Part shown: one piece after another, positions 6,037 through 64,000 of the stretch
How positions within the stretch are numbered: the first letter of the stretch is position 1
How the letters are laid out: every line of letters starts with the position of its first letter
Origin: an uncultured Methanosarcinales archaeon
GTDB lineage: Archaea > Nanobdellota > Nanobdellia > Woesearchaeales > DATDXC01
NCBI GenBank assembly: GCA_964510025.1
Contig: CAZDZV010000006.1
Span: 11,143-75,142, forward strand
Reading direction: 5' to 3'
DNA length: 64,000 bases
Notes under the pieces: generated by a model
Database searches by the model: none
What the model saw: the letters and a program-made list of their open reading frames with translations, nothing else
Told to the model about the DNA's origin: nothing
Program-made: the position numbers and the translations under genes

Positions 6037-6290
6037 ATAAATAAGTATTAAAATTATATTTGTAAGTATATAAATCTTTTTATTTTATATTTGTAAGTTT
6101 CATTAAAATTTAAGTAAGTATTATCTTTTTATTTGTAAGTAATTTTATATATTTATAAGTATTTAATTTTATAAATAAGCAATAAAACAATATTTGTAAG
6201 CTTATATATTATATAAATAAGTAATTAATAAATATTTAAAAGTATAAATTTATATTAATAAGTAATAAATATTTATTTGTAAGAACTATT
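6037..6290. repeat. AT-rich iteron-like array: 5 exact TTTGTAAG copies plus ~6 degenerate (A/T)TAAGTA copies in ~250 bp
   Basis: Exact TTTGTAAG at 6058, 6090, 6132, 6193, 6275. Variants ATAAGTA/TTATAAGT at ~6041, 6113, 6163, 6217, 6259. Spacing 30-80 bp. Intergenic between two minus-strand genes. Essentially no G+C. Confidence 0.6.
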
Positions 6291-7362: not shown

Positions 7363-7395
7363 ACCAAATAATTAATAGACTACTATATTAAACTT

Positions 7396-7929: not shown

Positions 7930-8004
7930 TTATATTTAATACTTTTTAGCACTATGTTTATATATTTTTTAGGAAGGGGAAAAATCAATGCAAGGGGGTA
8001 GTAC

Positions 8005-9669: not shown

Positions 9670-9710
9670 AAAGGTAAACTATTTAAACATATCAGCAACT
9701 TTAGAGGTAG

Positions 9711-9986
9711 GTGAAGACTATGGCAAAGAAAAAGAAAGAAAACGCCCCCCAGAGTGTTAGCAAAGAGGAGCAGATCGGTTTTCATAAGGGCGCTTTATCC
9801 ACATTAGCTAAAGAAAGGGAAGAGATGATGAGGATATTGCAGATTGTTGAGCAGCTTATGCAGATGCACATTAAAGGGTTGAAGGATTTGGGAATAGACT
9901 TAGAGGCAGCTGCAAAAAAAAACCAGAAACAGTCTGAAAAGAAGCCAAAGGAGCCTAAGAAACCCATAGAGGATATGCTTAGATGA
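9711..9986 (+). CDS. Small charged coiled-coil protein, unknown function
   Basis: 91 aa, Lys-rich termini, central amphipathic helix (EREEMMRILQIVEQLMQMHIKGLKDLG). Overlaps the next gene by 4 nt. Confidence 0.3.
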   Translation: MKTMAKKKKENAPQSVSKEEQIGFHKGALSTLAKEREEMMRILQIVEQLMQMHIKGLKDLGIDLEAAAKKNQKQSEKKPKEPKKPIEDMLR

Positions 9987-10378
9987 TTTTTTATGCATTT
10001 GGCCATCCAAAAATTAGCGCTAAGCATAGGACCACCCTGGAGTTCACCAAAAGCCCAAGCCTGACAAAAGCAGGAGACTGTATTCTTGGGGTAAATTCTG
10101 ATTTTGACCCAGATAGCTTAATAAGATTCATCCAGAACAGAAAAATCCTAAGCATGGCTATATCTGCTGGCCAGATATCTGATGAGCTTACTTTCACCGT
10201 AAACCCAGGTTTTAGAAGCAGAGAAGAGCTGGTAATAAGGAAAAGTGATTTTATCTCAGAACGGACCTTAGGCACCAATGCCGATAAAGCCTGCACCGAT
10301 ATAAACAGGGATTTGATCAAAAAATTAAGGAATAAAGAAAAAATCAAGATACAGCTGTATGAAAAAGACGCTAAGTAA
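9983..10378 (+). CDS. DUF371-like archaeal protein
   Basis: N-terminal FGHPKISAKHRTTLEFTKS matches the conserved GHPN(I/V)xATH(K/R)TT(L/F)E(I/F)T signature recalled for DUF371. Operon position next to a PUA protein. Confidence 0.4.
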   Translation: MIFYAFGHPKISAKHRTTLEFTKSPSLTKAGDCILGVNSDFDPDSLIRFIQNRKILSMAISAGQISDELTFTVNPGFRSREELVIRKSDFISERTLGTNADKACTDINRDLIKKLRNKEKIKIQLYEKDAK

Positions 10379-10811
10379 AAAAGATAAAAAAGAGATAAAT
10401 GAGAGGATAAGACAGTACAATTACCAGATAGACAAGAAACAGAAAGCTGATATTCTAGATGACAGGATCCTGGTCGAAGATGAGGCTTTGCTCTTTCGCA
10501 AAGACAGCGATATTTACCCCACCTTAAGGCTGATCCTCAAACAGGATACAAAGCTGAAGAAGATTACAGTGGATATGGGCGCTATCAGGTTTATCGCAGA
10601 TGGTGCAGATATCATGCGTCCCGGAATCGTGCATATTGAACCAGGAATCCAGAAAGGGGATCCTGTCGTTATAGTGGACATCGAACATGAGAAGCCATTT
10701 GCGCTTGGGATCTCTCTTCATAGTTCAGAGGATATGCAGAAAACGCAATCCGGAAAAGCGATCAAAAATATCCATTATGTGGGAGACGATATCTGGAACA
10801 CTAGTCACTAG
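10359..10811 (+). CDS. PUA-domain RNA-binding protein (MCT-1/Tma20-like, DUF1947+PUA)
   Basis: C-terminal IRFIADGADIMRPGIVHIEPGIQKGDPVVIVDIEHEKPFALGISL is a canonical PUA fold signature. Size and N-terminal region are consistent with the archaeal MCT-1 homolog. Confidence 0.55.
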   Translation: MKKTLSKKDKKEINERIRQYNYQIDKKQKADILDDRILVEDEALLFRKDSDIYPTLRLILKQDTKLKKITVDMGAIRFIADGADIMRPGIVHIEPGIQKGDPVVIVDIEHEKPFALGISLHSSEDMQKTQSGKAIKNIHYVGDDIWNTSH

Positions 10812-11262
10812 CTTTTATTCTTCTTGTTTTGGGGACATAGTTCAGCAGTTTATCTCCCGCAATCTTGCCGCACCCTAGGAAGTCATCCTTGTTTCTAACC
10901 AGCACGAATCCTGTCAGGCTGCCTTTATATTCCAGGTCATAGCCTTTGAGCCATTCTCGGGACTTTTTCTCATCCAGTTCAAGAATATTTTTGCATGCGC
11001 ATGGGCCTATGAGCTGGCTTCCTTCTATGCTAAGCCTTACCTGATCTTCTCTAAGTTCTGCGATATATAGTCCATAAGAATTTACTCTTAGTTTAGACAG
11101 ATCAATTTTTTTTACGTCCTCATTCACGATATATATCTTGTCCTTCTGGCTCAGCAGGAAGACATAATCAAGATCCTCCTCGAAGCCAAATTGCCTCCTG
11201 AATATCCCTAGAATGCCCTGTTTTTCCTTGTTGTTGAGTATCTTAAGCTTCATATTCCCCAT
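10801..11262 (-). CDS. NIP7-like ribosome-biogenesis factor (PUA-like)
   Basis: 153 aa. C-terminal GSLTGFVLVRNKDDFLGCGKIAGDKLLNY parallels NIP7's GVVVYSMADIPLGFGVAAK region. Overlaps aIF5B by 13 nt. Confidence 0.45.
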   Translation of the reverse strand: MGNMKLKILNNKEKQGILGIFRRQFGFEEDLDYVFLLSQKDKIYIVNEDVKKIDLSKLRVNSYGLYIAELREDQVRLSIEGSQLIGPCACKNILELDEKKSREWLKGYDLEYKGSLTGFVLVRNKDDFLGCGKIAGDKLLNYVPKTRRIKASD

Positions 11263-17069: not shown

Positions 17070-17882
17070 ATGGGCAGAATTCAGGAGAGATTAGAGCTAG
17101 CCTTGTCAGAATTCGCAGCTCAGGAAAAAAAGGAAAAAGAGAGTATACTATTTCTACCTTTGAGTGAAATAAAGCTTAATCCCAACAGGATAAGAAGAAA
17201 GATCAACAGAGAGGAGATTGCAGATATGGCTAACAACCTGAAGAAGTTTGGCATACTTCAGCCTCTTGAAATCAACGGAAAAAAAGAAGTGGTCCTGGGC
17301 AACAGGAGATTTGAGGCTGCAAAACTAGCTTCTTTGGAGAAGGTTCCTTGTGTAATACGCAACAGCTCAGACATCTTGGAGATGGAAAAACAGCTTGTTT
17401 CCGACCTTCACACAAAGCATCTAAGTGTGCTTGAGAGGGCAATAGCTTTTAGCACCCTTATGGAACTGAAGTCAATGACCAAATACGCGCTTGCAAAATA
17501 TCTAAATCTAAGCCACAACCTTGTATGCAGGACCTTGGCGCTGCTGAAAGCAAATGAGAATACCATGAGATTGATCAGGCTAGGCAGAATCAGCCAGAGA
17601 AAGGTAGCTATGGTTTTGTATAGGCTGAAAGACAAAAAAATGGAAGATTTCGTGATTCAGGAGATAATAGGCAGAAAGATGAATATAGTTCAGGCAGGAA
17701 ATTTCATAGCAGAGATAAATGATCCTGAGATATTCAAGAAGCATTTCTTGACAAGAATAAAGGCTTTCAAAACAACAGTGATGCACTTTAGGGAAAAGCT
17801 CGAAAAACTCAATCTTACCGAAGAGCAAAGAAAAGAGATTCTGGAAGAGCTAAGGTCCATTGATTTCAGTGAAATATTATGA
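17070..17882 (+). CDS. ParB/Srx-like N-terminal domain protein with HTH
   Basis: LPLSEIKLNPNRIRRKINREEIADMANNLKKFGILQPLEI ... GNRRFEAAKLA (ParB box II-like GxRRxxAA) and a downstream HTH (KYALAKYLNLSHNLVCRTLALL). Confidence 0.6.
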   Translation: MGRIQERLELALSEFAAQEKKEKESILFLPLSEIKLNPNRIRRKINREEIADMANNLKKFGILQPLEINGKKEVVLGNRRFEAAKLASLEKVPCVIRNSSDILEMEKQLVSDLHTKHLSVLERAIAFSTLMELKSMTKYALAKYLNLSHNLVCRTLALLKANENTMRLIRLGRISQRKVAMVLYRLKDKKMEDFVIQEIIGRKMNIVQAGNFIAEINDPEIFKKHFLTRIKAFKTTVMHFREKLEKLNLTEEQRKEILEELRSIDFSEIL

Positions 17883-50340: not shown

Positions 50341-50946
50341 ATGGGCAAAAAAAATAATTTTTTAAAAGGTGTCAAAAAAACCTGGAAGTTTATATGGGAG
50401 GATGACAGTCTCCTGAGCTGGATTCTGAACATAATCCTGGCCTTTGTACTCATCAAGTTTATTGTGTATCCCGGCCTGGGTTTTGTTCTTTCGACATCTC
50501 ATCCTATTGTTGCTGTTGTTTCAGGATCTATGGAACATGACCAGGCTTTTGACGGTTGGTGGGAATCAAATGGGGAATGGTATGTTAGTGCTGGGATCAC
50601 CAAAGAGCAGTTTGCAGGTTTCGATTTTCAAGATGGCTTTAATAAAGGCGACATAATGATACTTAGGGGCATAAAAACAAAAGATATAAAAATAGGGGAA
50701 GTGATTGTTTTTGAGAGCAAAAGACCTGACCCCATAATACATAGGGTAGTGAAGAAATGGGAGCAGGATAATGATTACCTGTTTCAGACAAAAGGGGATA
50801 ATAATATCGGCTCTATAAAATCGCCGTATCTGGATGAGACAACTATCGGAGAAGAACGGATCATCGGTAAGGCAGTATTTCGGGTTCCCCTGCTAGGCTA
50901 TATCAAGATATGGTTTGTGGAGCTTATCCAGTTGTTTACAAGGTGA
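50341..50946 (+). CDS. Signal peptidase I (archaeal/eukaryal S26B type)
   Basis: TM anchor, then AVVSGSMEHD (catalytic Ser box) and a DIMILRG-type box. Confidence 0.6.
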   Translation: MGKKNNFLKGVKKTWKFIWEDDSLLSWILNIILAFVLIKFIVYPGLGFVLSTSHPIVAVVSGSMEHDQAFDGWWESNGEWYVSAGITKEQFAGFDFQDGFNKGDIMILRGIKTKDIKIGEVIVFESKRPDPIIHRVVKKWEQDNDYLFQTKGDNNIGSIKSPYLDETTIGEERIIGKAVFRVPLLGYIKIWFVELIQLFTR

Positions 50947-50950
50947 GAAT

Positions 50951-51271
50951 ATGTTTTGTCCAAAATGCGGTTCAATATTGGTGCCAAAAAAAGAAGGTAA
51001 AAAGACAGTAGTTAAGTGCTCCTGCGGCTATAAGGCAAAAAACCAGGAATCTACCATAATCCGTGAGGAGGTGGTGGATAATACTAAAGAAGTAGAGCTT
51101 ATTGATGATGATAAAAGCCTTGAGACCCTGCCTAAGATGAAGGCAGAATGCCCAAAATGCCAGAACAATGAGGCTTATTTCTGGGAAGTGCAGACCAGAG
51201 CTTCAGATGAGCCCGCAACCAAATTTCTTAAGTGCACGAAATGCAAGCATGTGTGGCGGGACTATAATTAA
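50951..51271 (+). CDS. tfs: Transcription factor S / RNAP subunit M
   Basis: MFCPKCGS...CSCGY N-terminal Zn ribbon and C-terminal CPKCQNNEAYFWEVQTRASDEPATKFLKCTKCKHVW (TFIIS-type Zn ribbon with acidic hairpin DE). Start moved to ATG 50951. Confidence 0.8.
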   Translation: MFCPKCGSILVPKKEGKKTVVKCSCGYKAKNQESTIIREEVVDNTKEVELIDDDKSLETLPKMKAECPKCQNNEAYFWEVQTRASDEPATKFLKCTKCKHVWRDYN

Positions 51272-51813
51272 AGTATATAAGGGTTATTTCTAGCTTGCTC
51301 GAGAACACCTACTAGCTGCACCAGGCCCTCAGCTCCTGGAAACCCATTGCCTATATAGCCTCTTGCTCTAAGAATATCGCATGCGTCCCTGAATTCGTCC
51401 CCGCCGCCTGTCACCATCACAACAGCAATACGTTGGGTAGCAGCATCTCTCCCAAGCAAAGCCAGGGTTTCAATGCCTGATTCATCATGAGAATAAGACA
51501 GGGTGTTTCCTGTTCTTGGATGTACAATCTGGATTCTCCTGCTATCAACAGGCTCTCCTTGAACTAATCTTTTTGTGCTATAATTTACAGCTAAGAAAAC
51601 CATCAGTGGATCTAGTTCCCTTACCCTATCAGCTACAGACTCAGGGGTTGTTTCGGCTGAAACAGCTTCTGCAACAGCATCATAACCAGCATCCTTCAGC
51701 GTACTTATGTAAAGATCCGCTAACTCAGTTCTAGGATGAAACACTGCAATCTTATTTGGCATACAGGATATGTATAAAGCTTTACTATATAAATGTTTGT
51801 ATTTAGTTATCAC
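51268..51813 (-). CDS. Hypothetical Rossmann-like protein
   Basis: 181 aa, no confident family. Confidence 0.25.
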   Translation of the reverse strand: MITKYKHLYSKALYISCMPNKIAVFHPRTELADLYISTLKDAGYDAVAEAVSAETTPESVADRVRELDPLMVFLAVNYSTKRLVQGEPVDSRRIQIVHPRTGNTLSYSHDESGIETLALLGRDAATQRIAVVMVTGGGDEFRDACDILRARGYIGNGFPGAEGLVQLVGVLEQARNNPYIL

Positions 51814-52036
51814 TTTTAAGTGATGACTGCCCTACAAACCTAGAATTCTGCAATTTTAGGCTTTAATGCGTCTTTCATGCAAGACATGAATAACGACTCT
51901 GTGCTTCTCTTTGATCGGCCCACATCGGCTTTCTATTTTCATTGAGCCCATTTTATTTATATATAGGCAAGATAATGCTTTGATAATATATAAAAGCTGT
52001 GTTTATTTTGGGGAATTTGTGAGTCGACAAATCCCT

Positions 52037-52966
52037 CTAAATTATGATGTCTTTTAGGATTCCTTGTTTTACTAATTCGATATTTATCAAGTAATCATTA
52101 TGCAGAAAAGTTTCAAATAATGATTTCTTTGTTGTTTTCCATCCAAGACCATCGGTAATCCAAATTAAGTCGATTCCTTGTTTTCTTAAGAAGTCTGATA
52201 AGTACTGATATTCACCAGCTGTTGACTTTAATTTTGACCCACCGCCACTATAATAATTGGTTTCAATTACAAAAATCTTATTTTTTGATTTCTCAAATAC
52301 TGCAAAATCAAATATTCGATTGGTTTTATCAAGTTCAATATCAAAATTCCATTTCTCCTTGATCTTTTTTTGTGTTGCTTGCGGAATGTAGTCCAAGTTA
52401 TTTTTCTCTGAGAATTTCAGTATTATCTTCTCAACAATGCTCTCCATTGATTGACCTGTACGGTTTTTTCTTGCATTTGTATCCATTCCTACTTCGACAC
52501 CAAAGCAATAGTCAACAATATTCTTAACATTTTTATCTTTGAATATACTTTTTAATCCCGATTCCTTAAAGAAAATTAGTATGTCTTCTCTTATATCTGA
52601 AGTAAGCTCAACATCAGGATTAAATAATTCCAGTTTACTACCAGACTTTAGCTCTTCAAAATCATCAATGATGTTTACTGCCTTTAATTTGCTTTTTCTG
52701 ATAGCAATGAGAATTGGAAGAACCTTTCTTACATTTGGATATTCAGTAATAAGTTCAATGAATTCTTTTTCTATATCGCTTTTTCCAATTAACACATTAA
52801 GAAGATTTAGCTCTTTTTCAATTAAGTGAGTGTTATTCTTAACTTTCTCAAAATCAACAAAATAATCCCATGTAAATATGGAATCTGTCAAAGTTTGTAC
52901 AAGATAGTCAAATATCCCTTTCTCATCTTTTAGGTTTAATTTTTCATATGTTTGTAAGTATTTCAT
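52037..52966 (-). CDS. Putative type II restriction endonuclease (DpnII/MboI-like by context)
   Basis: 309 aa, 10 bp downstream of a Dam-class MTase in an operon with two MTases, the dpnM-dpnA-dpnB-like arrangement. Family assignment is contextual, not motif-based. Confidence 0.45.
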   Translation of the reverse strand: MKYLQTYEKLNLKDEKGIFDYLVQTLTDSIFTWDYFVDFEKVKNNTHLIEKELNLLNVLIGKSDIEKEFIELITEYPNVRKVLPILIAIRKSKLKAVNIIDDFEELKSGSKLELFNPDVELTSDIREDILIFFKESGLKSIFKDKNVKNIVDYCFGVEVGMDTNARKNRTGQSMESIVEKIILKFSEKNNLDYIPQATQKKIKEKWNFDIELDKTNRIFDFAVFEKSKNKIFVIETNYYSGGGSKLKSTAGEYQYLSDFLRKQGIDLIWITDGLGWKTTKKSLFETFLHNDYLINIELVKQGILKDIII

Positions 52967-52975
52967 TTCTTCACC

Positions 52976-53809
52976 TTAATAGTTTGTAACGACAACTTCA
53001 TTTATCTTTCCCCTTTTGTCCCCATTACAATTGATCATTCTTGTTGCCTGAACAAAATGGATTTCATAATTAGGATATAATTCTTTAATAAATTTTGTAT
53101 CGCTATTGCTTAACATCACAAGGCAACCATTATCATCCAGTTTTTTGAATACTTCAGCAAGCTGTTTCTGCTCTTCTTCTAAAAATGTGTCTTTTGTGTA
53201 GGTTGTAAAACTCTTTCCTTTTTTAAGTGGATAATAAGGAGGATCAAAATAAATAAAGTCTCCTTTATTTGCTAGATTAACAACCTTTTCGAAAGACATT
53301 ACTTTAATCGTAACATTTTTCAATAATTCTGAAACTAGTCTTAATCTATCTTCTTGGACAATATCTGGATTTTTGTAGGAACCCATCGGAACGTTGAATT
53401 TTCCCTTTGAGTTTACTCTATATAGTCCATTGAAGCAAGTCTTATTTAAATAAATGAATCGTGCTGCTCTTTCAAGAGAAGGTAATTCTTTTGGATTTGT
53501 TGCACGAATTGTTAAATAATATTTTTTGCCTTCAACCATATGATATTCCTTATGCTGTTTTAATTCAATTATTAATCTCTCTACATCACCCCTTATGGTT
53601 TCGTAAGCATTGATTAATTCTTCATTTATGTCTGAAATAATAATTTCAGAAGGATTAAACTTTTGAATTATATAGAAGAAAACTGCTCCGCTACCAACAA
53701 AAGGCTCTAAATAGCGATTAAACTTCTTTGGAAATAATGGCTCAAACTGTTCTAAAAGTTGACCTTTACCGCCTGCCCATTTAACAAATTTGGGGATTTG
53801 GATATTCAT
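52976..53809 (-). CDS. Dam-class (alpha) N6-adenine DNA methyltransferase
   Basis: KWAGGKGQLL (motif X), EPFVGSGAVFF (motif I), IYFDPPYY (motif IV), in alpha order. Confidence 0.85.
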   Translation of the reverse strand: MNIQIPKFVKWAGGKGQLLEQFEPLFPKKFNRYLEPFVGSGAVFFYIIQKFNPSEIIISDINEELINAYETIRGDVERLIIELKQHKEYHMVEGKKYYLTIRATNPKELPSLERAARFIYLNKTCFNGLYRVNSKGKFNVPMGSYKNPDIVQEDRLRLVSELLKNVTIKVMSFEKVVNLANKGDFIYFDPPYYPLKKGKSFTTYTKDTFLEEEQKQLAEVFKKLDDNGCLVMLSNSDTKFIKELYPNYEIHFVQATRMINCNGDKRGKINEVVVTNY

Positions 53810-55563
53810 TTTTTATTCTCCACCAATTCAGAAACAAATACTTTTAAATTGTCTGTTACCAAATAACTTTTTTCTAATAATTTTTCACATATCATCTTAC
53901 AAATATACTTTTTCAACCCTTCATCACAGAAATTAATCACTTCTTTATCTGAATTTTTACTTTTTATCTTTTCAGTTGCAAAATTCAAAATTTCACTATT
54001 ATTATATGCCTGATTTGTTCTTTCCTTAAATTCATCATAAGCCATAATAGTATAGTGGTTTCTTTTATCTTTTAAAAATTCATTAATTGTTTCTAAAATT
54101 AATTTTGGTTCAAAAATATCTTCAATCTCAAAATTAGCTACATTATTTTCATAATTATCAAAACGCTTAACATATTTACATTCTACACTAAAACAGTTAT
54201 ATGTTTTTGACTTTATTTGTTGAAATATACTTTTTCCAGCTGTATCAAAATCAAAAAGTGCGATAATTTTTGGCTTAAAAGATAGATTATTGCAAAACAA
54301 TTCTAGAAATTGTAGGTAACCTTTATATTTATCAACCCCTCCTGCAACAAGAATATTAGGTTTGATAATTTTTAGTTGTTCAAATAATGCAAATAAATAA
54401 TCTTTATCTTCCTGTCCTTCCACCAATAGATTGAAAGGCAAGATCTCCCAAGAATCATTCTTAGAAATTCCTAGGTGCTCTTTGACCATGTACACTTTTT
54501 CAATACCTGCAGCATTATTTATTCTTGTATTTACTTCATAGAATTTCTCGTCTTTTTTCCTGATGTATTCTTTTAATTGTATATCTGCTTCTAGCAAAAC
54601 TACTTCTTCCACTTTCTCAAGCCGTATAAAATTTGGAGAATGTGTATTAATAATGGTTTGATATTTTTTTGAAAGTTGAAACAAGATATCACTTACCCTT
54701 TTCTGAAGTGATGGTTGAAGAAATGCTTCTGGCTCGTCAAACCCCCAGATAATCTCTTTTCCAGTTTTATCAGATATATATTCGATTAAAGAGTATAAAA
54801 CAATTCTCTGAATTCCGCTCCCTTTTGTTTCAATTTTGTTTGAATTGCTATCAATCAGAGTAAAATCAATTAAATCAGATAAAACTTCTCGTAAGTTAAT
54901 GTATTTTGGGAATAGAATTTCTGCCCTCCATAATGAATTATCTATCCCATTAATTCCATTTGTATATTTTTTGATATTTTCAGTAAGTTCTTTTTTTATT
55001 TCTACTAATGCCTTTTCAGATTCTTCAATAAAAGTATTCAAATGTTCCATTGGTTTTGTTTTTCTTTTTCTCAGATTATCCAGGGGAGTTAATAATTCAT
55101 TACTAACAAACCTTGCAATCTCTTTAGAAGTGTCAATATTACTAGCTTCGACCATAATAAATTGATATTTATTTAGAACATTTTTACAATCTTTATCGCT
55201 CATTAGGGTTTCTTGTTTACCTTTTACTTTTATTTTGCCCTCTATCGTTAATGATTTGATTCCCTTTTTCTGCTCTTTATATGTTGTAGAAATAGTAATT
55301 CTATCTTGATTTTTATTAACAAATTCAGCTGTGATTTTTGTTCTGAATCCTGCTCCTCTTTTTCCATAGTAGATATGATGAGGAATATCCTCGTTAGCAT
55401 TAAATTTATTTTCGTCTAACGAGAAGAACAAATTTATAGCTCGTAATACATTTGTTTTACCAACATTATTTGAACCACAAATGATTTTATAGTTATCATT
55501 AGAGAAATCAATCTTTAACTTACTTATTGATCTGTAATTACTTATACTTATTTTCTTTAACAT
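53806..55563 (-). CDS. OLD-family ATP-dependent nuclease: ABC-type ATPase (AAA_15/21-like) fused to C-terminal Toprim
   Basis: Walker A ICGSNNVGKTNVLRAI, Walker B/D-loop IIWGFDEPEAFLQPS, Toprim glutamate LLVEGQEDKDYL and DxD LFDFDTAGKS. 4-nt overlap with the Dam gene start. Confidence 0.75.
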   Translation of the reverse strand: MLKKISISNYRSISKLKIDFSNDNYKIICGSNNVGKTNVLRAINLFFSLDENKFNANEDIPHHIYYGKRGAGFRTKITAEFVNKNQDRITISTTYKEQKKGIKSLTIEGKIKVKGKQETLMSDKDCKNVLNKYQFIMVEASNIDTSKEIARFVSNELLTPLDNLRKRKTKPMEHLNTFIEESEKALVEIKKELTENIKKYTNGINGIDNSLWRAEILFPKYINLREVLSDLIDFTLIDSNSNKIETKGSGIQRIVLYSLIEYISDKTGKEIIWGFDEPEAFLQPSLQKRVSDILFQLSKKYQTIINTHSPNFIRLEKVEEVVLLEADIQLKEYIRKKDEKFYEVNTRINNAAGIEKVYMVKEHLGISKNDSWEILPFNLLVEGQEDKDYLFALFEQLKIIKPNILVAGGVDKYKGYLQFLELFCNNLSFKPKIIALFDFDTAGKSIFQQIKSKTYNCFSVECKYVKRFDNYENNVANFEIEDIFEPKLILETINEFLKDKRNHYTIMAYDEFKERTNQAYNNSEILNFATEKIKSKNSDKEVINFCDEGLKKYICKMICEKLLEKSYLVTDNLKVFVSELVENKK

Positions 55564-55579
55564 TATTTCCCCAGTATAG

Positions 55580-56365
55580 TCAAATAAGCTTATTCTTTAT
55601 AGAGTTTATCCTTTTTATTGTGGTTTTTAAAAAATTCTCCTCTTTATCAATACCTATAAATTGTCGATTAAGCATACTTGATACAACCCCTGTAGTACCA
55701 GATCCATTAAATGGATCTAGTACAACGGCATTTTCTTTTGTTGAAGATGCGATAATTCTTCTCAATAATTCTATTGGCTTTTGAGTGGGATGCTTTCCAT
55801 GAGTCTTTTCGCTCATTGGAGTTAACGGAATATGCCAAATGCTCCTCATTTGTTTACCTTTTGGAGCAATATTATCATCCCATTCCCTCATTAAATCATA
55901 ATTAAAAACATGAGGAATCTTCCCATCTTTTCTTGCCCATAAAACAGTTTCATGTGCATGAGCAAAATACCTGCAGCTTAAATTTGGTGGTGCATTAGGT
56001 TTAAACCATGCAATTTCATTTAATAATTTGAAATTGAGCTTTTGTAACGCATATCCTACTTGGTATATATTATGCATTGTCCCAGAAATCCAAATAGTAC
56101 CATTATCTTTTAATACCTTACGACATGCATTTATCCATTCATAAGTGAATTTGAAATCTTTGTCTATTCCATTAGATTTATCCCAGTCTGCTTTATTAAC
56201 TGAGACCATTTTACCAGCCCTGCAAGAGATCCCTCCGTTAGATAGGAAATAAGGTGGATCTGCAAAAACCATATCAACAGATTTTTCAGGTAATGTGTTT
56301 AGAATACTAATACAATCATTATGGAAAAGTTGCACAGTTTCAGACTTGTAATAGGGTTTAATCAT
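55580..56365 (-). CDS. Beta-class N6-adenine/N4-cytosine DNA methyltransferase (DpnA-like)
   Basis: VFADPPYFLSNGG (motif IV) near the N-terminus and DPFNGSGTTG (motif I) near the C-terminus, the beta-class order. Confidence 0.8.
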   Translation of the reverse strand: MIKPYYKSETVQLFHNDCISILNTLPEKSVDMVFADPPYFLSNGGISCRAGKMVSVNKADWDKSNGIDKDFKFTYEWINACRKVLKDNGTIWISGTMHNIYQVGYALQKLNFKLLNEIAWFKPNAPPNLSCRYFAHAHETVLWARKDGKIPHVFNYDLMREWDDNIAPKGKQMRSIWHIPLTPMSEKTHGKHPTQKPIELLRRIIASSTKENAVVLDPFNGSGTTGVVSSMLNRQFIGIDKEENFLKTTIKRINSIKNKLI

Positions 56366-56495
56366 TTATAAATCTAATAAAGTCCTTTATTATAAACTTT
56401 GTTATTAAACTTTCGAAATATTACTATTTTCTTTGCAATGAGCCGTCTCATCGCCCCCTCTCTTCGCAGATCCTTCTATATACAATGCAAGCCTT

Positions 56496-57113
56496 ATGTA
56501 TTACATACTCCGAACGTTGCTTATAAACGATGGGAGCCTTAAATTAGGTGGTGATAAAATGACCTTGGAATATAAGCGTGAACCTCTAGAAGAGGATGAA
56601 GTGTTGGCTTTAAGGAGAGCATCTACTTTCTTTGAAGAAGAATTAGTTATAAACTGTCTGTTAGATACTGGCATGAGAGTATCAGAGCTTGCCAACCTAA
56701 GAGAAGAAAATATCTCCTGGCAAAGAAACTGTATCAGCTTGATAGGAAAAGGTAATAAGCGTAGGGTGATCCCAATGAGTAAAAGAGTAAGGCTACTCCT
56801 ATTAGACTGTTTTTCTCACAATAATACCAAATTTCCATTAGCCATGCGAACAATCCAAAAATATGTTAAAATCGTGGCAGACAAGGCAAGGATAAGAAAA
56901 ACTGTAAGCCCTCACGTGCTAAGACACACATTTGCAGTAACCTATCTTCACAGAGGAGGCAATTTAAGGGCATTACAGGCTATTCTAGGGCATAGTTCCA
57001 TAACAACTACTGATATTTACCTCAACTACTCAGGGAAGCGAGTTATTGATGATTTTCAAAGAATATGGAATGAGCCAGATACAAATAACAAGTTATTGAC
57101 GGGGTATTTTTAA
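56496..57113 (+). CDS. Short tyrosine recombinase (catalytic domain only)
   Basis: TGMRVSEL (Arg), HVLRHTFAVTYL (HxxR), GHSSITTTDIYLNY (catalytic Tyr). The likely true start is the internal ATG near 56559 (MTLEYK...). Confidence 0.7.
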   Translation: MYYILRTLLINDGSLKLGGDKMTLEYKREPLEEDEVLALRRASTFFEEELVINCLLDTGMRVSELANLREENISWQRNCISLIGKGNKRRVIPMSKRVRLLLLDCFSHNNTKFPLAMRTIQKYVKIVADKARIRKTVSPHVLRHTFAVTYLHRGGNLRALQAILGHSSITTTDIYLNYSGKRVIDDFQRIWNEPDTNNKLLTGYF

Positions 57114-57115
57114 AA

Positions 57116-58162
57116 ATGGCAAAAAACATCTTCTTTTTTATTATTAAGCATGGAGCTTTGCTTGGCATAGCATTTCCATTTATATTATCCATAAAAATAA
57201 GCACATCTCCTTTTGGTTTGGTACATTTAGTGTTAACCCTAATTATTTTGGAATACTATGCTTATTCCATACACCAGTTTTTATTTGATTTTCAGGATAA
57301 AAGAAGAAAGTTAAGAATAAAAAAATTTGAAGAGTCTAAACTGATTGATAAATTCCTAAATGCTAAATTAGATTACTCTAAATCTTCAGAACTATTAGAG
57401 TTAATTTCTATTATAAAGAATACAGAATTCTTGCCAAAATTAAAAGAAATGTATAATCAGAAAATCGAAGAAAAAATGATTTATGCTGAAAGACTACTTG
57501 AGAAATTACAGCACCAAGAAGAAATACAAGAACTTGAGCTGAAGAAAAGTCAACTTAATAACAACATTCAATATCTAATAAAGCAAGAAAAGGAGATGAC
57601 TCAAACAGAAGAAGAAAGGAAGGAAGATCTAAAGGGGGAGATGAATCTTGAAGAAAATAAGGTGTTTGAAGAGTCAGATCTTACTGATGAAAAAGCAAAT
57701 TTTCTTCTGGAAGAAGGATACGAACAAACCAATCAATATTCAATTATGGAAGAAGGAAATATCTCGGTTTATATCAAACCCGTACTTAATCATTCAAAAT
57801 CACATATGTTTTTGGTTTACGAATTAAAGCAGATTTTGGAACATTGGTATGAAGCTGAAAACATAGAAGAGCATCTAACAAAGGATGCAGACCTTACTTT
57901 CAAGTATAACAAGAAAATCTACGCTCTGGAAGTTGAGACAGGAACATTGCTGAAAAAGAAAGACCAAGCTAGAGATAAAGTAGAATATCTAAATAGGAAA
58001 TATCAAAACAGATGGATGTTCATAGTAACAAATAGAAACCAAGTGGCTAAATACAAGAAATTAGGAATAGTCAGTGAGAGAAAGCAGGTGACAAAAAATC
58101 TTGATAAGATGCTAAAACTCCGCACCCCCCTAGATCGGGTGTCTGAGGAATTTCCCGACTAA
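57116..58162 (+). CDS. Membrane-anchored coiled-coil protein with C-terminal PD-(D/E)xK/Hjc-like motif
   Basis: Two N-terminal TM helices, a ~150-aa coiled coil, then HMFLVYELKQ...DADLTFKYNKKIYALEVETGTLLKKK...RWMFIVTNRN, which fits a D...(E/D)xE...K restriction-endonuclease-like core. 3 nt after the integrase stop. Confidence 0.3.
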   Translation: MAKNIFFFIIKHGALLGIAFPFILSIKISTSPFGLVHLVLTLIILEYYAYSIHQFLFDFQDKRRKLRIKKFEESKLIDKFLNAKLDYSKSSELLELISIIKNTEFLPKLKEMYNQKIEEKMIYAERLLEKLQHQEEIQELELKKSQLNNNIQYLIKQEKEMTQTEEERKEDLKGEMNLEENKVFEESDLTDEKANFLLEEGYEQTNQYSIMEEGNISVYIKPVLNHSKSHMFLVYELKQILEHWYEAENIEEHLTKDADLTFKYNKKIYALEVETGTLLKKKDQARDKVEYLNRKYQNRWMFIVTNRNQVAKYKKLGIVSERKQVTKNLDKMLKLRTPLDRVSEEFPD

Positions 58163-58215
58163 AAAATCACTAAAATAGTCACTTATTCAATCTCCGTATA
58201 ATATCACTTCTTATA

Positions 58216-58977
58216 TTACATAAGGCTATTTTCCAGCTTCTCAATTTTTACAAGCATCTCGTACTTCTCTTTGAATTCTTCCATACTTAACTCTCCCTCC
58301 ACATACTTCATCTTGAGTGCTTCCAATGGTTCAATTGTAGATTCTTTTGTGGATTGCTTCGGCTCTCTCTTCGTACCAAAAGCCATGTTTATCTTGTTTT
58401 GTAAGTCTTTATTTGTAATGTAAGCATAGATTTGGGTAGTATGGATATCAACATGCCCAAGAGATCTCTGAACATAGTAGAGGTCGACTCCTTTTTCTAG
58501 TAGATAGGTTGCATAGGTATGTCTCAATGTATGAAAACTGTAAGCATACCTTTGCTGTCCAAGTTGTGTTTTGAAAGTCTCGATACTAAGCTTAGCTTTC
58601 AGAAGATATTTTCTAAAATGCTTGCTTAAAATGTTGTTAGCAAATGGTCTTCCAGAATAGTTTGAAATAAAATACTCTGATTCATCTGAAAGCCTGAACC
58701 ATTTCTCAATCAATGGTTTGACTTTTTCAGGTAGCATCACTACTCTGTCTTTGCTACCTTTTCCCTGTCTTACAATTACCCTTTCAGCTTCAAGATCAAC
58801 ATCTTGTTTTTTCAGATTGCAGACTTCACTTATACGCAGACCACAAAACAAGGCAATAATACAGCCCATAAATATATTTGCATCATCAATCTGCTCAAAA
58901 AGTGCCATTAATTGCTTTTTATTGAAAACATTAGGTAGTTTTCTTTTTGTATTTGGTCTCCCGAATCTCATCTTCAC
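58216..58977 (-). CDS. Tyrosine recombinase/integrase (XerC/D-like catalytic domain)
   Basis: GLRISEV (Arg), HTLRHTYATYLL (HxxR), GHVDIHTTQIYAYI (Tyr). Confidence 0.8.
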   Translation of the reverse strand: MKMRFGRPNTKRKLPNVFNKKQLMALFEQIDDANIFMGCIIALFCGLRISEVCNLKKQDVDLEAERVIVRQGKGSKDRVVMLPEKVKPLIEKWFRLSDESEYFISNYSGRPFANNILSKHFRKYLLKAKLSIETFKTQLGQQRYAYSFHTLRHTYATYLLEKGVDLYYVQRSLGHVDIHTTQIYAYITNKDLQNKINMAFGTKREPKQSTKESTIEPLEALKMKYVEGELSMEEFKEKYEMLVKIEKLENSLM

Positions 58978-59381
58978 ATCCTCGCAATAAGGTTTAATCC
59001 ATGATCCCTGATCACTTGGGTTACATCTTCAAACCTTTCCTGTCTTCGCTTTAAAGCCTCAGAAACCGCTTTTTTCTGCGATATAGTCCTCTGCTTGATC
59101 TGGAACTTGATGTCAATCGGAATCTTTTCTAAAAGCAACCATCTGTAAACCGTAAAGGGGTTATAGCTACTTTTGATAAGAAAATCATACAACTCCTTCT
59201 CTAGCCCAAGAACTAGAAACTTCTTCCTATTATAATGAAAATGAGCTAATTTACCCATAATCTGCAAGAAATCACGACTCTCTAGCTGAGGAAGACGACT
59301 ATATACCAATTTCCTCAAGCATTCTAGCTTCTGGACAAAATTTTTCTGCATATCTGCTTGTTTCACGACCGACACCCCCAT
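58974..59381 (-). CDS. Hypothetical protein 4-nt coupled upstream of the integrase (possible detached N-terminal core-binding domain)
   Basis: 135 aa, basic and helical. 135+253 aa equals the usual full-length integrase size. Confidence 0.3.
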   Translation of the reverse strand: MGVSVVKQADMQKNFVQKLECLRKLVYSRLPQLESRDFLQIMGKLAHFHYNRKKFLVLGLEKELYDFLIKSSYNPFTVYRWLLLEKIPIDIKFQIKQRTISQKKAVSEALKRRQERFEDVTQVIRDHGLNLIARM

Positions 59382-59507
59382 GTCAGCTCAATAAGAAAGA
59401 AAAGACCGACGTGAACTCACAAGATGCAGAATCTATAAATCTTTCTATTATTTACTATTAATTAGTAATAACATATCCTTAAAAATATTGGATTATCTAT
59501 ACAATAT

Positions 59508-59738
59508 ATGGATATCGAAGGGCCTGTATTCAGGATTATCGTAAAGCCGAGCAGTCCAAATAATAAGGTGCTTGGCTATGATAAGGCTAAAAAAGCATAT
59601 AAGGTACAGATAAAAGCAAAACCAGAAAAAGATAAGGCTAACATTGAAACAGTAAAATTTTTGTCCAGATTGCTTAAGAGAAAGGTAAAGATAATAAAAG
59701 GCTTCAGGAGTAAGCAGAAGATACTATCTTTTGAATAA
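59508..59738 (+). CDS. DUF167 (YggU/UPF0235) family protein
   Basis: 76 aa. IIVKPSSPNNKV ... AKPEKDKANIETVKFLSRLLKRKVKIIKGFRSKQK matches the DUF167 consensus (pattern ...G(K/R)AN..l...l...v.i..G..s..K). Confidence 0.55.
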   Translation: MDIEGPVFRIIVKPSSPNNKVLGYDKAKKAYKVQIKAKPEKDKANIETVKFLSRLLKRKVKIIKGFRSKQKILSFE

Positions 59739-61688
59739 TTTTCGCCTAACCAGGACCACCAAGATAATAAGGATACCGAAGATAGTCAGGAGGCCGCCTA
59801 AAATGTCAGCAAAAGTCTTTCCATAATAAAGCCTGACATGCTCTGATTCTGGATATACAAGCATAAAGCTTGGGCTAACCAGGTATACCTTATCCGCTCC
59901 TTGCACCTTCCAGTTAGGGAAGTAGGAAACCTTGATTACATGCGGTTTGCCTGTGCAGTCTGTCCTGAATATGATTTCTTCGTCGCTAATTAGCTCTTCG
60001 TTTATTTCACATGCATTATCGATCTTTTTTATGGCCATATTTTCAGCTGAATTCTCAAAGACAACATAATAGCTCAGATTAGACTGCTCAAACCATATCA
60101 TGGAATTTTTTTTCCAGTTCCTCCTCGGATATGTCAGTGGACGATATTTTGGAACTTCGATATATCCTGTCTGGCTGATTTCATATATCTCAATATTTTC
60201 TATCTTCTCCAAAAGCCGGAAACCTGGATGATTCCTAGCCTTGAATTTTACAGAATCAGAGGTAGCTAAGAAATATCTTATGTTGAATAGTCCCATATGT
60301 TTCAGGCCCCTGTCAATATCGACATCAGGGCAGCTCAGGCCCATGATAGGGCAGGAAGCATTTTCAGATAGCTCTGCCTGCATTATGAAATGGAAAGGTG
60401 CTGTGATAGATGAGTCTACAAACAGCCCGGTGATTACTGGTTTATTCGCAAAAACAGGTATAGTCTCAAATGCTCTTGGACTCCCGAATCTGTCATGAGA
60501 GTCGCTGTATTCGTAGAAAATCCTTCCATCAGGCAGATTCTTGAGATAATGTGTTAGTTCAAAGAAAGAACCTTCTTTTTTTTCCAAACCTTCATAGTTC
60601 CATTTTATCCAGCTGGGGGTGTACGCTGTTGTCAGGTTGGCGTATACTAGGACAAGAAGGACAAATAATACGATAAAAATCTCAGTATATTTGGTCTTTT
60701 CTAGAAGATTCTTTATCGGTATAGCGGCCAGAAGCAGCATGAACAGGTAAACAAAAGGTAAAAATCTCACGTTCCATATATGGCCATCTGGCAGTGCAAA
60801 AAAGACAACAAGGGACACAAAGACTATATACATAAAGAAACGTATACGCTCATCCTTGAAGTATAGGATAGCCCCTAAGATTGCGACTGCATAGAAGACA
60901 ATAAGTGTGGGCGGAACTAGAAGCATGATGTTATGCAGCTGGTTCCAGTTGTAGGAGGTTGTATAGCCTATCTTAGCCATGAATGGAACTGACCAGAAAG
61001 CAGAAAGCGAAAAAGCCAGCAGTCCAATTTTCGTAAGATAGACAGAATTATGCTTCAACCTCCTTTGTAGTAAAAAAAAGACCGAGCCTAACGCCGCTAT
61101 CACTGCAACAAAAACATGCGTTAAGGCTATGGAAGCCAGCAACACCGAGTTCAAAATGATATGCTTCCTATGCTTAATGCCATAGTAGAGAAAACCGAAA
61201 TACACCAGCAGTAGTGAAATTGCAATGCTGTGACAAAACTCGCCTGCTAAAGTGCTGGCAATATTACCCCCATACATAGAATGGCTCTCTAAAAAAAGGA
61301 AAGGCAGCACCAGGACAGAGGCTATGACTGGCTTTCTTATGCCCATAAGCTTGAACATCAGATAGGCTGAAGCTGGTAAGGAAAATATTCCTATGACTGT
61401 AATGATCCTAAATGCCAGCTCCAGCGGGATTACATAGGACAAGCCGGCAATTAGTAGAAAAGGCAGCTGGAAATAAAACTGAAACATTGGCAGCCCTGCA
61501 AACCAGGACAAAGAAAAACCTGAAATCCTGCCTTTACCCAGGCTCTCCCTCATAAATCCTGCTGCATGATAATGTGATATAGTGTCTCCTCCAGCCACAG
61601 CCTCAGACTGAAAAACCAGCTGCGGGCTGAAGTAAGCAAATAAGAAAGAGTAGATTATAACCAAAATCAGCATATCTATGTATTTCAT
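59724..61688 (-). CDS. Large polytopic membrane protein with C-terminal soluble domain (possible ArnT/PMT-like glycosyltransferase-C fold)
   Basis: About 13 TM helices in the first ~400 aa, a ~230-aa extracytoplasmic C-terminal domain, and a final TM. No WWDYG (AglB) motif seen. Confidence 0.3.
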   Translation of the reverse strand: MKYIDMLILVIIYSFLFAYFSPQLVFQSEAVAGGDTISHYHAAGFMRESLGKGRISGFSLSWFAGLPMFQFYFQLPFLLIAGLSYVIPLELAFRIITVIGIFSLPASAYLMFKLMGIRKPVIASVLVLPFLFLESHSMYGGNIASTLAGEFCHSIAISLLLVYFGFLYYGIKHRKHIILNSVLLASIALTHVFVAVIAALGSVFFLLQRRLKHNSVYLTKIGLLAFSLSAFWSVPFMAKIGYTTSYNWNQLHNIMLLVPPTLIVFYAVAILGAILYFKDERIRFFMYIVFVSLVVFFALPDGHIWNVRFLPFVYLFMLLLAAIPIKNLLEKTKYTEIFIVLFVLLVLVYANLTTAYTPSWIKWNYEGLEKKEGSFFELTHYLKNLPDGRIFYEYSDSHDRFGSPRAFETIPVFANKPVITGLFVDSSITAPFHFIMQAELSENASCPIMGLSCPDVDIDRGLKHMGLFNIRYFLATSDSVKFKARNHPGFRLLEKIENIEIYEISQTGYIEVPKYRPLTYPRRNWKKNSMIWFEQSNLSYYVVFENSAENMAIKKIDNACEINEELISDEEIIFRTDCTGKPHVIKVSYFPNWKVQGADKVYLVSPSFMLVYPESEHVRLYYGKTFADILGGLLTIFGILIILVVLVRRKLFKR

Positions 61689-61689
61689 C

Positions 61690-62868
61690 TCAGATATTCA
61701 AAATTCTTGAAACGTTCTCCTTGATTCTTTTTTCAAAATCTGAAACCTTCTCGCCCTCATTTCTTCCGGTAGAAAGCACCTTCATAAGTTCTTTTGTAAT
61801 CTCCAGATTGCCTGCATTTTCCCTGATAAGCTTATCCTCAATATCCTCGACACTGTCAGCATCTATCTTAATCTCATCAAACTCCTTGGTTGTTAAGGAT
61901 ACGGTATTTTTCATGACAAAATATGCTCCTTTATCATATATCATCTGGATGATGCTCTTAAAGTCGATATCAGAAGGTTTCCCTGTCTCCAGCACGCCGC
62001 CTAACCTTATGGTCACGATTGTATTGATAAACTCCTTATCCTTGATTTCGTCCTTAAGCATCGATTCCACCTGCTCCACGGTCCTGTGGTCGCATTCCAG
62101 CTTTATAGGATAGGTGTTGTAGATCTGCACAGGTTCCCAGCTAAGCTGGCCTTCTTCGTAAATATAGAAGCCGCCGTTTCCTAGTTTTTCCAGCTCCGAG
62201 AAGTTGTTTGGAAAAAGCGGCCCTGGATATGAGATCATACCATAGCCTTGCTCAGCCTTATTGTAGACAAAATGTGGATGTCCGCCAGCGTAGTAATTGA
62301 AATTCCTTGGAAGCAGGGAGATGGGTTGCGAATCTGCATTTTGCATCTCCTTTGGCTTTAGCTCTGTCAGCAATGAGTGGAACATGAAAATTTTGAAGCC
62401 ACCTTCCTTTTCCAGAGGATCCCGGTTAAGTTCTTCATAAAAACCCTTTTCAAGGCCCCCTCTTTTGCCCACCAGCCCTGTAATCTTTGCTCCTGTAATC
62501 TCATCTATGGTGAACTGCAGGTCCAGCTTCCCGTCCTTTACCTTGCCTCTAGCTACGTTTATGCATAAACCAGCATTTTCGAGCACATCCAGCATAGTCT
62601 TTCCAGAAGGTGAAAAATCGTGGCTGCCTGCAATTATATAGAAAGGGATTCCTTTGTCCTTGATCTCCTTGAGCTTTTTTGTGACCGCTTTAAGCTTGTC
62701 GATGGCTGGCAAAGAAGTATTGAAAAGGTCACCTGAAACTATGATAAAGTCGACTTTTTTGCTTGCTGCAAGGTCAATTGCCTTTTGGAATGCCTGCAGG
62801 CTTATGTTGTTTAGCTTAGGGTCTCTCCAGCTGCCAATATGGCAGTCTGCCAGATGAGCGAATTTCAT
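61690..62868 (-). CDS. mre11: Mre11 DNA double-strand-break repair nuclease
   Basis: Phosphoesterase motifs HLADCHIG (I), GDLFN (II), IIAGSHD (III), and downstream His motifs (HSLL, GGHPH). Confidence 0.85.
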   Translation of the reverse strand: MKFAHLADCHIGSWRDPKLNNISLQAFQKAIDLAASKKVDFIIVSGDLFNTSLPAIDKLKAVTKKLKEIKDKGIPFYIIAGSHDFSPSGKTMLDVLENAGLCINVARGKVKDGKLDLQFTIDEITGAKITGLVGKRGGLEKGFYEELNRDPLEKEGGFKIFMFHSLLTELKPKEMQNADSQPISLLPRNFNYYAGGHPHFVYNKAEQGYGMISYPGPLFPNNFSELEKLGNGGFYIYEEGQLSWEPVQIYNTYPIKLECDHRTVEQVESMLKDEIKDKEFINTIVTIRLGGVLETGKPSDIDFKSIIQMIYDKGAYFVMKNTVSLTTKEFDEIKIDADSVEDIEDKLIRENAGNLEITKELMKVLSTGRNEGEKVSDFEKRIKENVSRILNI

Positions 62869-62901
62869 ATTAGCAGGTAATCGACAAATATATATAAAGA
62901 T

Positions 62902-64000
62902 TTATGATAATTTGATGCCGCTAAAATCTCTTGGGCTATCAGATTTATCTTTCCTGGAAAAATTATCGAAGAGGCTGATCTTTATAGGCGTGGCGAACCT
63001 AGCGAAGTTGCTTGAAAGGATAGCTTCGCCCACATCTAGCGAAGCGATGTTCCTGTCGTCCTCGCTAAGATCCTGGGCTGCTGAATCTATGATGGCCTGT
63101 CTTTCAGGCTTCATCTCTATGCCCAAGATTATCTTAGTATTTATATTTGCCAGTATCTGCCTCGGTATCAGAGAGGGCAGCTGCGTTATGGCTGTCAGAC
63201 CAACTTTAAATTTCCTTCCTTCCCTAGCGATCGTGGAAAATATATTTGGACCTTTTTCCAGGACTTCCTTGCCTAGCACTCTGGGTGCTTCTTCTAATAT
63301 TATTGAAATAACAGGCTTGTCCCGTAAAGTCCCTTCTGTTTTGTAATGCTTGTATTTGTTAAAGACCTCTGTGCTAATGAGGCTGCCGATCAGGATCTCT
63401 ATTTCACCAGCATATCCTGAAGTGTCTATTATTACTGTTTTGCTTGCTTCAAGCTCTTGGCCTATATCCCTTAATGTCGAAATCCCGCTCTTAAGCTGGA
63501 AGATACCGTTAAAAAATAGCTGGTTATCTGCAAAATCAATATCCAACAGCCTGAGCATCCTTCTTCTTAGGACAGCAAGTGTAGCTTCATTGAACCCATC
63601 CACTGGTTTCTCCAGGATTATGGCTTCGATCCATTTTTTTTGGTATTTGTGATAAAAGGCAGCCAGGCCTTCCCTTTGGGCCTGCGACCAGTCAACGACC
63701 CCGTTGAAATGTGCAGGTCTGATGAGCTCCAGGTTTATCCTAAGGGTTTTGCCCCCGGGAGGGGCATCTTTTGGCCGGTAATATACGATATTATTCTTAG
63801 TAGGGTGGTTCTTTATCCTACCATAGTACTCATCATGAGGATCAAGGACAAGTATGCCGCAGTAATCCTTGTCGATGCTGTCCCAGAGCATGCATGACAT
63901 AAGGTTAGATTTTCCTTTTCCTGTTGTTGCAGGAATAAGGATATGATGTGAGAAAGCCTTTACACCATCCAGGTATATGCCTACATCCAACACCTTGCTG
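62902..64000 (-). CDS. herA: HerA-type FtsK/HerA-superfamily ATPase, 5'-truncated by the window edge
   Basis: Walker [13 protein letters not shown], Walker [11 protein letters not shown], and a C-terminal arginine-finger region. Immediately upstream of mre11, as in archaeal herA-mre11 operons. The N-terminal HAS-barrel region must lie beyond 64000. Confidence 0.7.

Follow-up and report, generated by a model that had tools for sequence, protein, structure and literature searches.

What does an OLD-family nuclease gene do when it lies inside a restriction-modification (R-M) operon? The question is raised by a four-gene cassette on an archaeal contig (CAZDZV010000006.1), in which a 585-aa ABC ATPase-Toprim protein of the OLD family is encoded between the two DNA methyltransferases of a DpnII-type R-M system. 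We analyzed the whole 64-kb stretch around this cassette (the window), and coordinates are window positions unless a locus label is given. On balance, and by analogy with other embedded nucleases, we favor the view that the OLD protein is a second-line defense effector embedded in the R-M system, with a trigger and a target that are predicted on the same grounds. The pairing recurs in many unrelated bacteria, which speaks for a genuine two-layer antiviral module, so far undescribed, and against a one-off.

An earlier note on this DNA had described a beta-class methyltransferase, an OLD nuclease, a Dam-class methyltransferase and a putative restriction endonuclease (REase) in that order on the minus strand. 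The list of open reading frames (ORFs) reproduced these genes, their coordinates and their strand, and hidden Markov model and PADLOC searches supported each assignment. The beta methylase matches Pfam N6_N4_Mtase (9.1e-61) and PADLOC MTase_II (1.3e-99), and its nearest solved sequences are CcrM (6pbd, 1.1e-63) followed by chains named DpnA (5hek, 7.7e-27). The Dam-class enzyme matches MethyltransfD12 (7.4e-68), PADLOC MTase_II and TIGR00571 dam (307 bits against a cut-off of 115), with DpnM as its best solved match (2dpm, 2.7e-76). The 309-aa protein proved to be a strong member of the DpnII family (Pfam PF04556, 3.5e-90, profile positions 2-277 of 278; PADLOC REase_II, 2.5e-92), which removes the doubt over its REase fold; a sequence search for a solved relative of it returned none. 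The dpnA/dpnM/dpnB architecture that the note had proposed holds for the DpnII- and DpnM-type genes, with the second, beta methylase as a candidate DpnA counterpart, but not for their contiguity, because the 1.76-kb OLD gene parts the two methylases.

The cassette has an operon-like layout, from which co-transcription is predicted. The junction sequence confirmed the claimed 4-nt overlap (ATGA) of the Dam start with the end of the OLD gene, and the remaining junctions are 16 and 9 nt long and bear Shine-Dalgarno-like GGGGA and GGTGA. A candidate promoter lies in the divergent intergenic region 5' of the operon. The cassette is also more AT-rich than its surroundings, as had been reported, with a GC content of 0.28-0.30 over 52-56 kb versus about 0.40 in neighboring genes.

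From their family membership, the cassette enzymes are predicted to recognize GATC, with cleavage blocked by G6mATC. We counted GATC in the host DNA outside the insertion described below (positions 1-51271 and 59508-64000), taking the expectation from an order-2 Markov model. GATC is depleted, with 184 sites seen versus 289 expected (observed/expected 0.64); of the 16 four-base palindromes, only CGCG (0.51) has a lower ratio. This depletion lends the predicted specificity indirect support and fits a long exposure of the lineage to GATC restriction, but it is no proof that the present copy is active. CCGG is slightly enriched in the same DNA (observed/expected 1.21).

The N-terminal half of the OLD protein is an ABC-type ATPase (AAA_15/AAA_21/SMC_N; AAA_15 1.4e-24). 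Its best sequence match among solved structures is GajA (3e-18), and the best PADLOC model for the whole protein is Old (4.5e-29, aligned over residues 2-446). In 70 homologues, the ATPase motifs are invariant: Walker A (N32-N33 and K36-T37), the signature (K247, G250 and Q252), Walker B (D276-E277) and the H-loop (H308). The C-terminal acidic residues E382, D386, D438, D440, E481 and D482 are invariant in the same set, as is K551, and with them the conserved Glu, Gly, DxD, second-metal acidic residues and Lys of a Toprim domain are all present. The earlier note had made its reading of the protein depend on such residues, and on this point it stands. In the OLD protein of Burkholderia (BpOLD), the two-metal site consists of E400, E404, D455-x-D457, T506/E508 and K562 (PMC6755086), and the invariant C-terminal residues mirror this site. 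D386, E481/D482 and K551 of the window protein are spaced like BpOLD E404, E508 and K562 (PMC6755086).

The AlphaFold model of the protein is confident (pLDDT, the predicted score in the local distance difference test, 85.8). Its parallel sheet of four strands shows the Toprim arrangement, with E382 following beta-1, G408/G409 following beta-2 and D438-x-D440 following beta-3. The full-length fold resembles solved OLD proteins, and the Thermus scotoductus protein (TsOLD) is the best structural match at 18% sequence identity. No NCBIfam model reaches its own cut-off on the protein, its Toprim region alone has no match in PADLOC, and exact-sequence look-ups of the window OLD protein and of protein P0061 returned no record. 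Judged from conserved residues and the predicted fold, the 585-aa protein is a divergent but, as it appears, catalytically equipped member of the OLD family.

We scanned for the OLD clade with one genome per species, which gave relatives in 79 loci, 59 of them with a near-full-length OLD gene, and detected R-M neighbors by tblastn with the window R-M proteins. Of these 59, 22 have GATC-type R-M genes directly beside OLD, and L059 is the one locus where these are not all on the OLD strand. Among the hosts are Patescibacteria, Alphaproteobacteria, Bacillales, Bacteroidota, Clostridia, Veillonella, Leptotrichia and Helicobacter, and the R-M-linked members fall into at least seven separate lineages of a neighbor-joining tree. 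Their genes follow at least four orders: D12-N6N4-DpnII-OLD, D12-DpnII-OLD-N6N4, D12-OLD-DpnII and N6N4-OLD-D12-DpnII. A conserved ORF of about 250 aa beside OLD in loci of Firmicutes, Fusobacteria, Helicobacter and the candidate phyla radiation (CPR) is a permuted N6_N4 methylase.

The nuclease of these systems varies. In two loci with Dam, N6_N4 and OLD genes, a MutH-family nuclease replaces DpnII (L014 1378-1998 and L045 4353-5009), and in L068 a DUF6996/DUF6997/DUF7226 protein holds the nuclease position. Since MutH can take the place of DpnII, the constant partner of OLD is a two-methylase GATC-type system and not one nuclease fold. In L041 (2335-3204), the DpnII homologue beside an intact OLD gene has two in-frame stops and its ORF ends at 235 aa; this locus may have lost its endonuclease while keeping OLD and the methylases.

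Among the remaining OLD loci, a Pfam census of tightly linked neighbors found HsdM/HsdS/HsdR in 4 or 5 loci, other methylases, and one DpnI. In the Type I R-M operons of L019, L023 and L024 (at about 3000-11000 in each), one clade of the OLD family is flanked by an HsdS-like and an HsdR-like gene, which is the position of PrrC in EcoprrI. OLD relatives in a plasmid collection reach at most 28% identity, and viral contigs hold two real OLD relatives, neither with R-M genes.

We also approached the pairing from the restriction enzyme, using the 80 metagenomic loci closest to the window DpnII protein. Across this set and the OLD-clade set, the beta methylase accompanies Dam and DpnII in many loci. 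Several of these DpnII cassettes carry other extra genes between their R-M genes: AIPR in L088 (4292-5995), NOV_C in L095 (3010-3816) and GmrSD in three loci (L114 1248-2900, L121 935-2584 and L119 6881-9438), the last of which also has DUF6996/6997. ORFs of 150-405 aa with no family match fill the slot in L106, L123, L090, L141 and L147. Because AIPR, GmrSD and NOV_C occupy the same slot, these data indicate that GATC cassettes host varied embedded defense genes, of which OLD is one of several. Such cassettes, with AIPR, GmrSD and unknown genes in their slots, are a possible compact hunting ground for new defense genes.

These observations can be joined in a model of a mobile two-layer defense cassette. 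The outer layer would be the DpnII/DpnM-type Type II R-M system, in which the Dam-like alpha methylase and the beta methylase would mark host DNA, most likely at GATC, and the DpnII-family endonuclease would cut unmethylated incoming DNA. The OLD protein, presumably co-transcribed with these genes and translationally coupled to Dam, would join an ABC ATPase, as sensor, to a Toprim nuclease in a Class 1 architecture. It would normally be inactive, and its ATPase would be switched on by an infection cue such as aberrant DNA ends or structures, or the failure of restriction. By analogy with PrrC, HEC-04 and P2 OLD, the active protein would then cleave tRNA or DNA and abort the infection, and embedding would make both layers move together. 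The gene has the marks of an embedded gene: it lies between genes of a methylation system, on their strand, and has un-embedded homologues elsewhere. A defensive role for OLD and its control by the R-M host system are both predictions from this analogy, which likewise makes the earlier note's suggestion that OLD backs up restriction plausible.

A stronger form of this model is possible but tentative. In it, the OLD clade would be wired to GATC R-M, so that the ATPase senses a product or the failure of the GATC system and fires the Toprim nuclease, which would make a new context class of OLD proteins. Candidate cues would be DpnII-made ends, unmethylated or hemimethylated GATC DNA, and phage Dam or anti-restriction proteins. 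If this were true, restriction and abortive infection would form one circuit that has spread over bacterial phyla and into archaea.

Several observations weigh against the effector model. The sequence matches of the OLD C-terminus are weak (OLD-like_TOPRIM E = 0.026, Toprim_2 E = 0.047), a match to the Toprim-like DUF3226 lies just at the cut-off (3.6e-6), and a profile of the C-terminal domain found no solved Toprim protein among PDB sequences. A Foldseek search with the isolated C-terminal model ranked T7 primase best (E = 0.023, probability 0.97) and gave topoisomerase I a probability of 0.80, but these matches are weak (E = 0.02-0.08) and TsOLD appears at rank 14. The beta methylase is closer to CcrM, a GANTC enzyme, than to any solved GATC enzyme, and the target assigned to it is a predicted one, as is the activity of every gene in the cassette. 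About half of the OLD-clade members are solitary (for example L002 and L003), and 0 of the 80 DpnII loci has an OLD homologue. The solitary OLDs and OLD-free DpnII loci indicate that neither side requires a dedicated partnership.

These last two counts also favor an explanation in which OLD simply hitch-hikes: an autonomous Class 1-type protein, present in R-M operons only because embedding ties its transfer and retention to a selected system, with no functional tie to GATC. The unrelated AIPR, GmrSD and NOV_C genes in the same slots and the OLD clade within Type I operons point the same way, as does the faster divergence of OLD (71% amino acid identity, against 85-88% for the R-M proteins) between the window and the L001 locus described below. 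A study of embedded defense genes also argues that embedding brings a selfish benefit. However, the partner is overwhelmingly of one specificity class, a Dam-like and a beta methylase with DpnII or MutH, in 22 of 59 loci, at least 7 lineages and at least 4 orders, and in the window the OLD gene is tightly coupled in translation to the Dam gene. Random insertion does not readily explain so strong a bias, and we therefore regard pure hitch-hiking as unlikely, although it deserves to be taken seriously.

The same coupled, operonic layout could be taken to mean that OLD is an integral accessory subunit, an ATP-dependent processing nuclease which degrades DpnII-cut fragments or loads at their ends in place of RecBCD-type degradation where the host lacks it, so that the four genes would make up a single enzyme system. 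DpnII and MboI, however, function without OLD, as do most DpnII-family systems in that they lack it, and the position of OLD relative to the REase varies. A review describes TsOLD and P2 Old as 5'-3' exonucleases on linear double-stranded DNA that can linearize plasmids, and a 2026 preprint reports that in cells deficient for recB P2 OLD binds DNA termini that are unresolved; several of the hosts are archaea or CPR bacteria, which presumably lack RecBCD. Yet in the same preprint P2 OLD is reported to recognize unresolved DNA termini and single-stranded DNA hairpins and then to cleave tRNA, with no nuclease activity on double-stranded DNA. A subunit role is improbable because OLD is rare among DpnII systems and stays intact in L041 beside a disrupted DpnII homologue. 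Least probable of all, to the point of being very hard to sustain, is that the cassette is a decaying or inactive relic, carried along lately and without function by an integrative element that has degraded. Both neighboring recombinases do lack N-terminal domains, no att repeats were found at the borders, and the composition has yet to approach that of the host. But all four ORFs run intact over their full length, no catalytic motif has been lost, and GATC is depleted in the host DNA. Moreover, copies that are 22% apart in DNA still encode R-M proteins with 85-88% identity, which indicates purifying selection. We thus return to an embedded second-line effector as the favored reading.

The copy used in these comparisons lies in L001, a 939-kb metagenomic contig whose cassette is identical in gene content and order but has a different genomic context. 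A blastn comparison with the window gave one block of 4,391 nt at 78% identity, which pairs window positions 52044-56407 with L001 7147-11528. This homology ends at the cassette edges, reaching about 40 nt into the divergent intergenic region and excluding the recombinases. The beta methylase is 88% identical between the two copies, and the OLD protein (L001 8001-9758) has diverged most at residues 91-120, 481-510 and 571-585, segments that are perhaps sensor or surface regions in rapid evolution. The transferred unit, as delimited by this alignment, is the four-gene cassette only and is narrower than the island around it. We considered the recombinases as part of this unit and rejected them, since the shared DNA stops with the cassette and the integrase of L001 shows just 33-34% identity.

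L001 has a GC content of 0.23-0.30 throughout and encodes a bacterial-type aspartyl-tRNA synthetase (745 bits against a cut-off of 374), the one marker gene by which it is probably bacterial. The genes that flank the island in the window are archaeal housekeeping genes, with TFS_arch, ribC_arch and sigpep_I_arch all above their equivalog cut-offs. Because the window flanks are archaeal and the L001 synthetase is bacterial-type, the cassette has probably crossed between a low-GC bacterium and this DPANN-like archaeon. A similar cassette in an archaeon and a probable bacterium would be a clean case of a composite defense module that crosses domains. About 6 kb downstream of the L001 cassette lies a gene with an RloB domain, a Toprim-like, restriction-linked ORF (17637-17758), which suggests a wider defense island there.

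In the window, the cassette is part of a larger insertion (Table 1). L083, the best long relative, has its signal peptidase, TFS and DUF167 genes contiguous and co-directional, and since TFS and DUF167 are adjacent there but separated in the window, the 8,236 bp between them are an insertion. L083 is a distant comparator, with flank proteins 39-50% identical, and serves as a synteny proxy, as no close sister genome with an empty site was found and L084 lacks the synteny. The nearest relatives of a 654-aa membrane protein in the flank are about 43% identical, and the named ones include Aenigmatarchaeota. The foreign composition, the insertion relative to L083 and the presence of the same cassette elsewhere in L001 bear out the horizontal acquisition that the earlier note had proposed.

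Table 1. Positions of the features of the cassette, the surrounding island and its flanks in the 64-kb window.
Feature	Positions	Strand	Basis
Archaeal TFS gene, left flank	50915-51271		
181-aa ORF at left edge of insertion, GC 0.40-0.48 (cassette lower)	51268-51813	-	ORF
Inserted island, 8,236 bp, between TFS gene and DUF167 gene	51272-59507		synteny vs L083
DpnII-family type II restriction endonuclease, 309 aa, last in operon	52037-52966	-	Pfam, PADLOC
R-M + OLD cassette, unit common to another genome	52044-56407	-	blastn vs L001
Alpha-class Dam/DpnM-like N6-adenine methyltransferase, 277 aa	52976-53809	-	Pfam, NCBIfam, 2dpm match
OLD-family ABC ATPase-Toprim protein, 585 aa	53806-55563	-	Pfam, PADLOC, fold, motifs
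Beta-class N6_N4 DNA methyltransferase, 261 aa, DpnA-like position, first in operon	55580-56365	-	Pfam, PADLOC
Divergent intergenic region 5' of operon, A/T-rich TATA-like motifs	56366-56495		direct sequence reading
Tyrosine recombinase 1, 205 aa, catalytic domain only	56496-57113	+	Phage_integrase 6.9e-28
348-aa protein, GC 0.26-0.33	57116-58162	+	ORF
Tyrosine recombinase 2, 253 aa, catalytic domain only	58216-58977	-	Phage_integrase 1.5e-32
135-aa ORF, overlaps GTG start of recombinase 2 by 4 nt	58974-59381	-	ORF
DUF167 gene, right flank	59508-59738		

The two tyrosine recombinases reported to follow the cassette were recovered as Phage_integrase genes. They are N-terminally truncated XerA-like proteins: recombinase 1 covers positions 94-258 of the 263 in XerA_Arch (137 bits against a cut-off of 220), recombinase 2 covers positions 85-261 (136 bits against the same cut-off), and they are 29% identical to each other. 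Both lie on the same side of the cassette. ARAGORN found no tRNA genes in the window, and a search for att-like repeats gave no convincing direct or inverted repeats, the island borders sharing a single 11-mer (0.27 expected by chance). The locus thus shows the insertion and the deviating composition of an integrase island, but no full-length integrase with an att or tRNA target. The description of the island as integrase-bounded has to be dropped, given one-sided, truncated recombinases and an L001 homology that stops at the cassette edges.

The remaining island ORFs encode proteins of 348, 135 and 181 aa that have no match in Pfam, NCBIfam, PHROGs or PADLOC scans, so that the nuclease-like character which the earlier note gave to the 348-aa membrane protein is at most putative. 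Read by eye, the translation of the 348-aa protein has a hydrophobic N-terminus, a charged middle and a possible C-terminal D...ExE...K motif. The 135-aa ORF and recombinase 2 together would make 388 aa, a typical integrase length, and may be a split gene. The 135-aa ORF was tried as the N-terminal domain that recombinase 2 lacks, but a comparison with that domain of the L001 integrase detected no similarity. The 181-aa ORF and the TFS gene are convergent and share 4 nt at the TFS stop. The syntenic region of L083 lacks this ORF, which may either belong to the insertion or be lineage-specific. Elsewhere, L084 (2259-7844) carries four tandem AAA_14/DUF4143 ATPase paralogues directly 5' of the gene for a PTPS-related membrane protein.

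How does the cassette compare with described systems? Like DpnII, MboI and LlaDCHI-type R-M, it has a DpnII-family REase, a DpnM-like Dam enzyme and a second, beta methylase in one co-directional operon. It differs in its archaeal host, in the embedded 585-aa ATPase-nuclease and in the order beta methylase, OLD, Dam, REase; the order in S. pneumoniae is the contiguous dpnM-dpnA-dpnB. Among OLD proteins, it is closest in structure to Class 1 (P2 Old, T. scotoductus OLD and E. coli YbjD), of which TsOLD is the best match, but it shares just 18% identity with TsOLD and lies inside an R-M operon instead of forming an isolated gene. In the OLD review, Class 1 comprises genes that stand isolated, away from further defense genes, and helicase and retron are the only contexts given besides; a 2019 survey of OLD proteins mentions just unspecified "species-specific operons". 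Class 1-type OLDs are abundant and defined as stand-alone, and their triggers beyond P2 and lambda are largely unknown, so that a clade repeatedly built into GATC R-M operons is a testable handle on what OLD proteins sense.

Other ATPase-Toprim systems differ in their genes. Class 2 OLD, or Gabija, shares the logic of an ABC ATPase with a Toprim effector in GajA, but no island protein has a helicase domain that could correspond to the UvrD/PcrA/Rep-like GajB. None has the reverse transcriptase domain of the retron-associated Class 3, whose non-coding RNA was not searched for. In PARIS (AriA/AriB), AbiL and RloAB, ATPase and Toprim are two genes, whereas the window protein holds both in one 585-aa ORF.

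LlaKR2I of Lactococcus lactis is a Sau3AI-type GATC system. With AbiR/LlaKR2I, the window cassette shares the interleaving of an abortive-infection module, here a predicted one, with Type II R-M genes. The AbiR proteins are unrelated to OLD (sigma-like, ParB-like and SNF2-like). AbiR also depends on the LlaKR2I methylase and is toxic in its absence, while no such dependence is known for the window OLD.

Parallels for the embedding are PrrC in EcoprrI, RloA/RloB and HEC-04, where an ABC-ATPase nuclease is likewise nested in a methylation system, on the same strand, and has un-embedded homologues. According to the embedding study, EcoprrI keeps PrrC silent and the phage Stp peptide releases it, and HEC-04 is an ABC ATPase-TOPRIM fusion embedded in Hma systems whose validation came from mutants in Walker A and the metal site. 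Among the PADLOC matches listed for the 585-aa protein, the best is Old and none is HEC-04. The hosts named in the accessible text of that study are Hma, BREX, DISARM and Type I R-M, and a small Type II GATC cassette is not one of them. In the literature covered, which is not complete, there was no account of an OLD clade that recurs in Type II GATC cassettes. The earlier note had said that an OLD nuclease in an R-M operon is not a described standard system. This pairing is no oddity, as it recurs and extends to Type I operons, and DpnII-type R-M, the OLD family and, with PrrC and HEC-04, the embedding of ABC-ATPase nucleases in methylation-based systems are all known already. The novelty lies not in the embedding principle but in the specific Type II GATC host and in the recurrence, which extend the idea of guilt by embedding from large systems such as Type I, BREX and Hma to small Type II cassettes.

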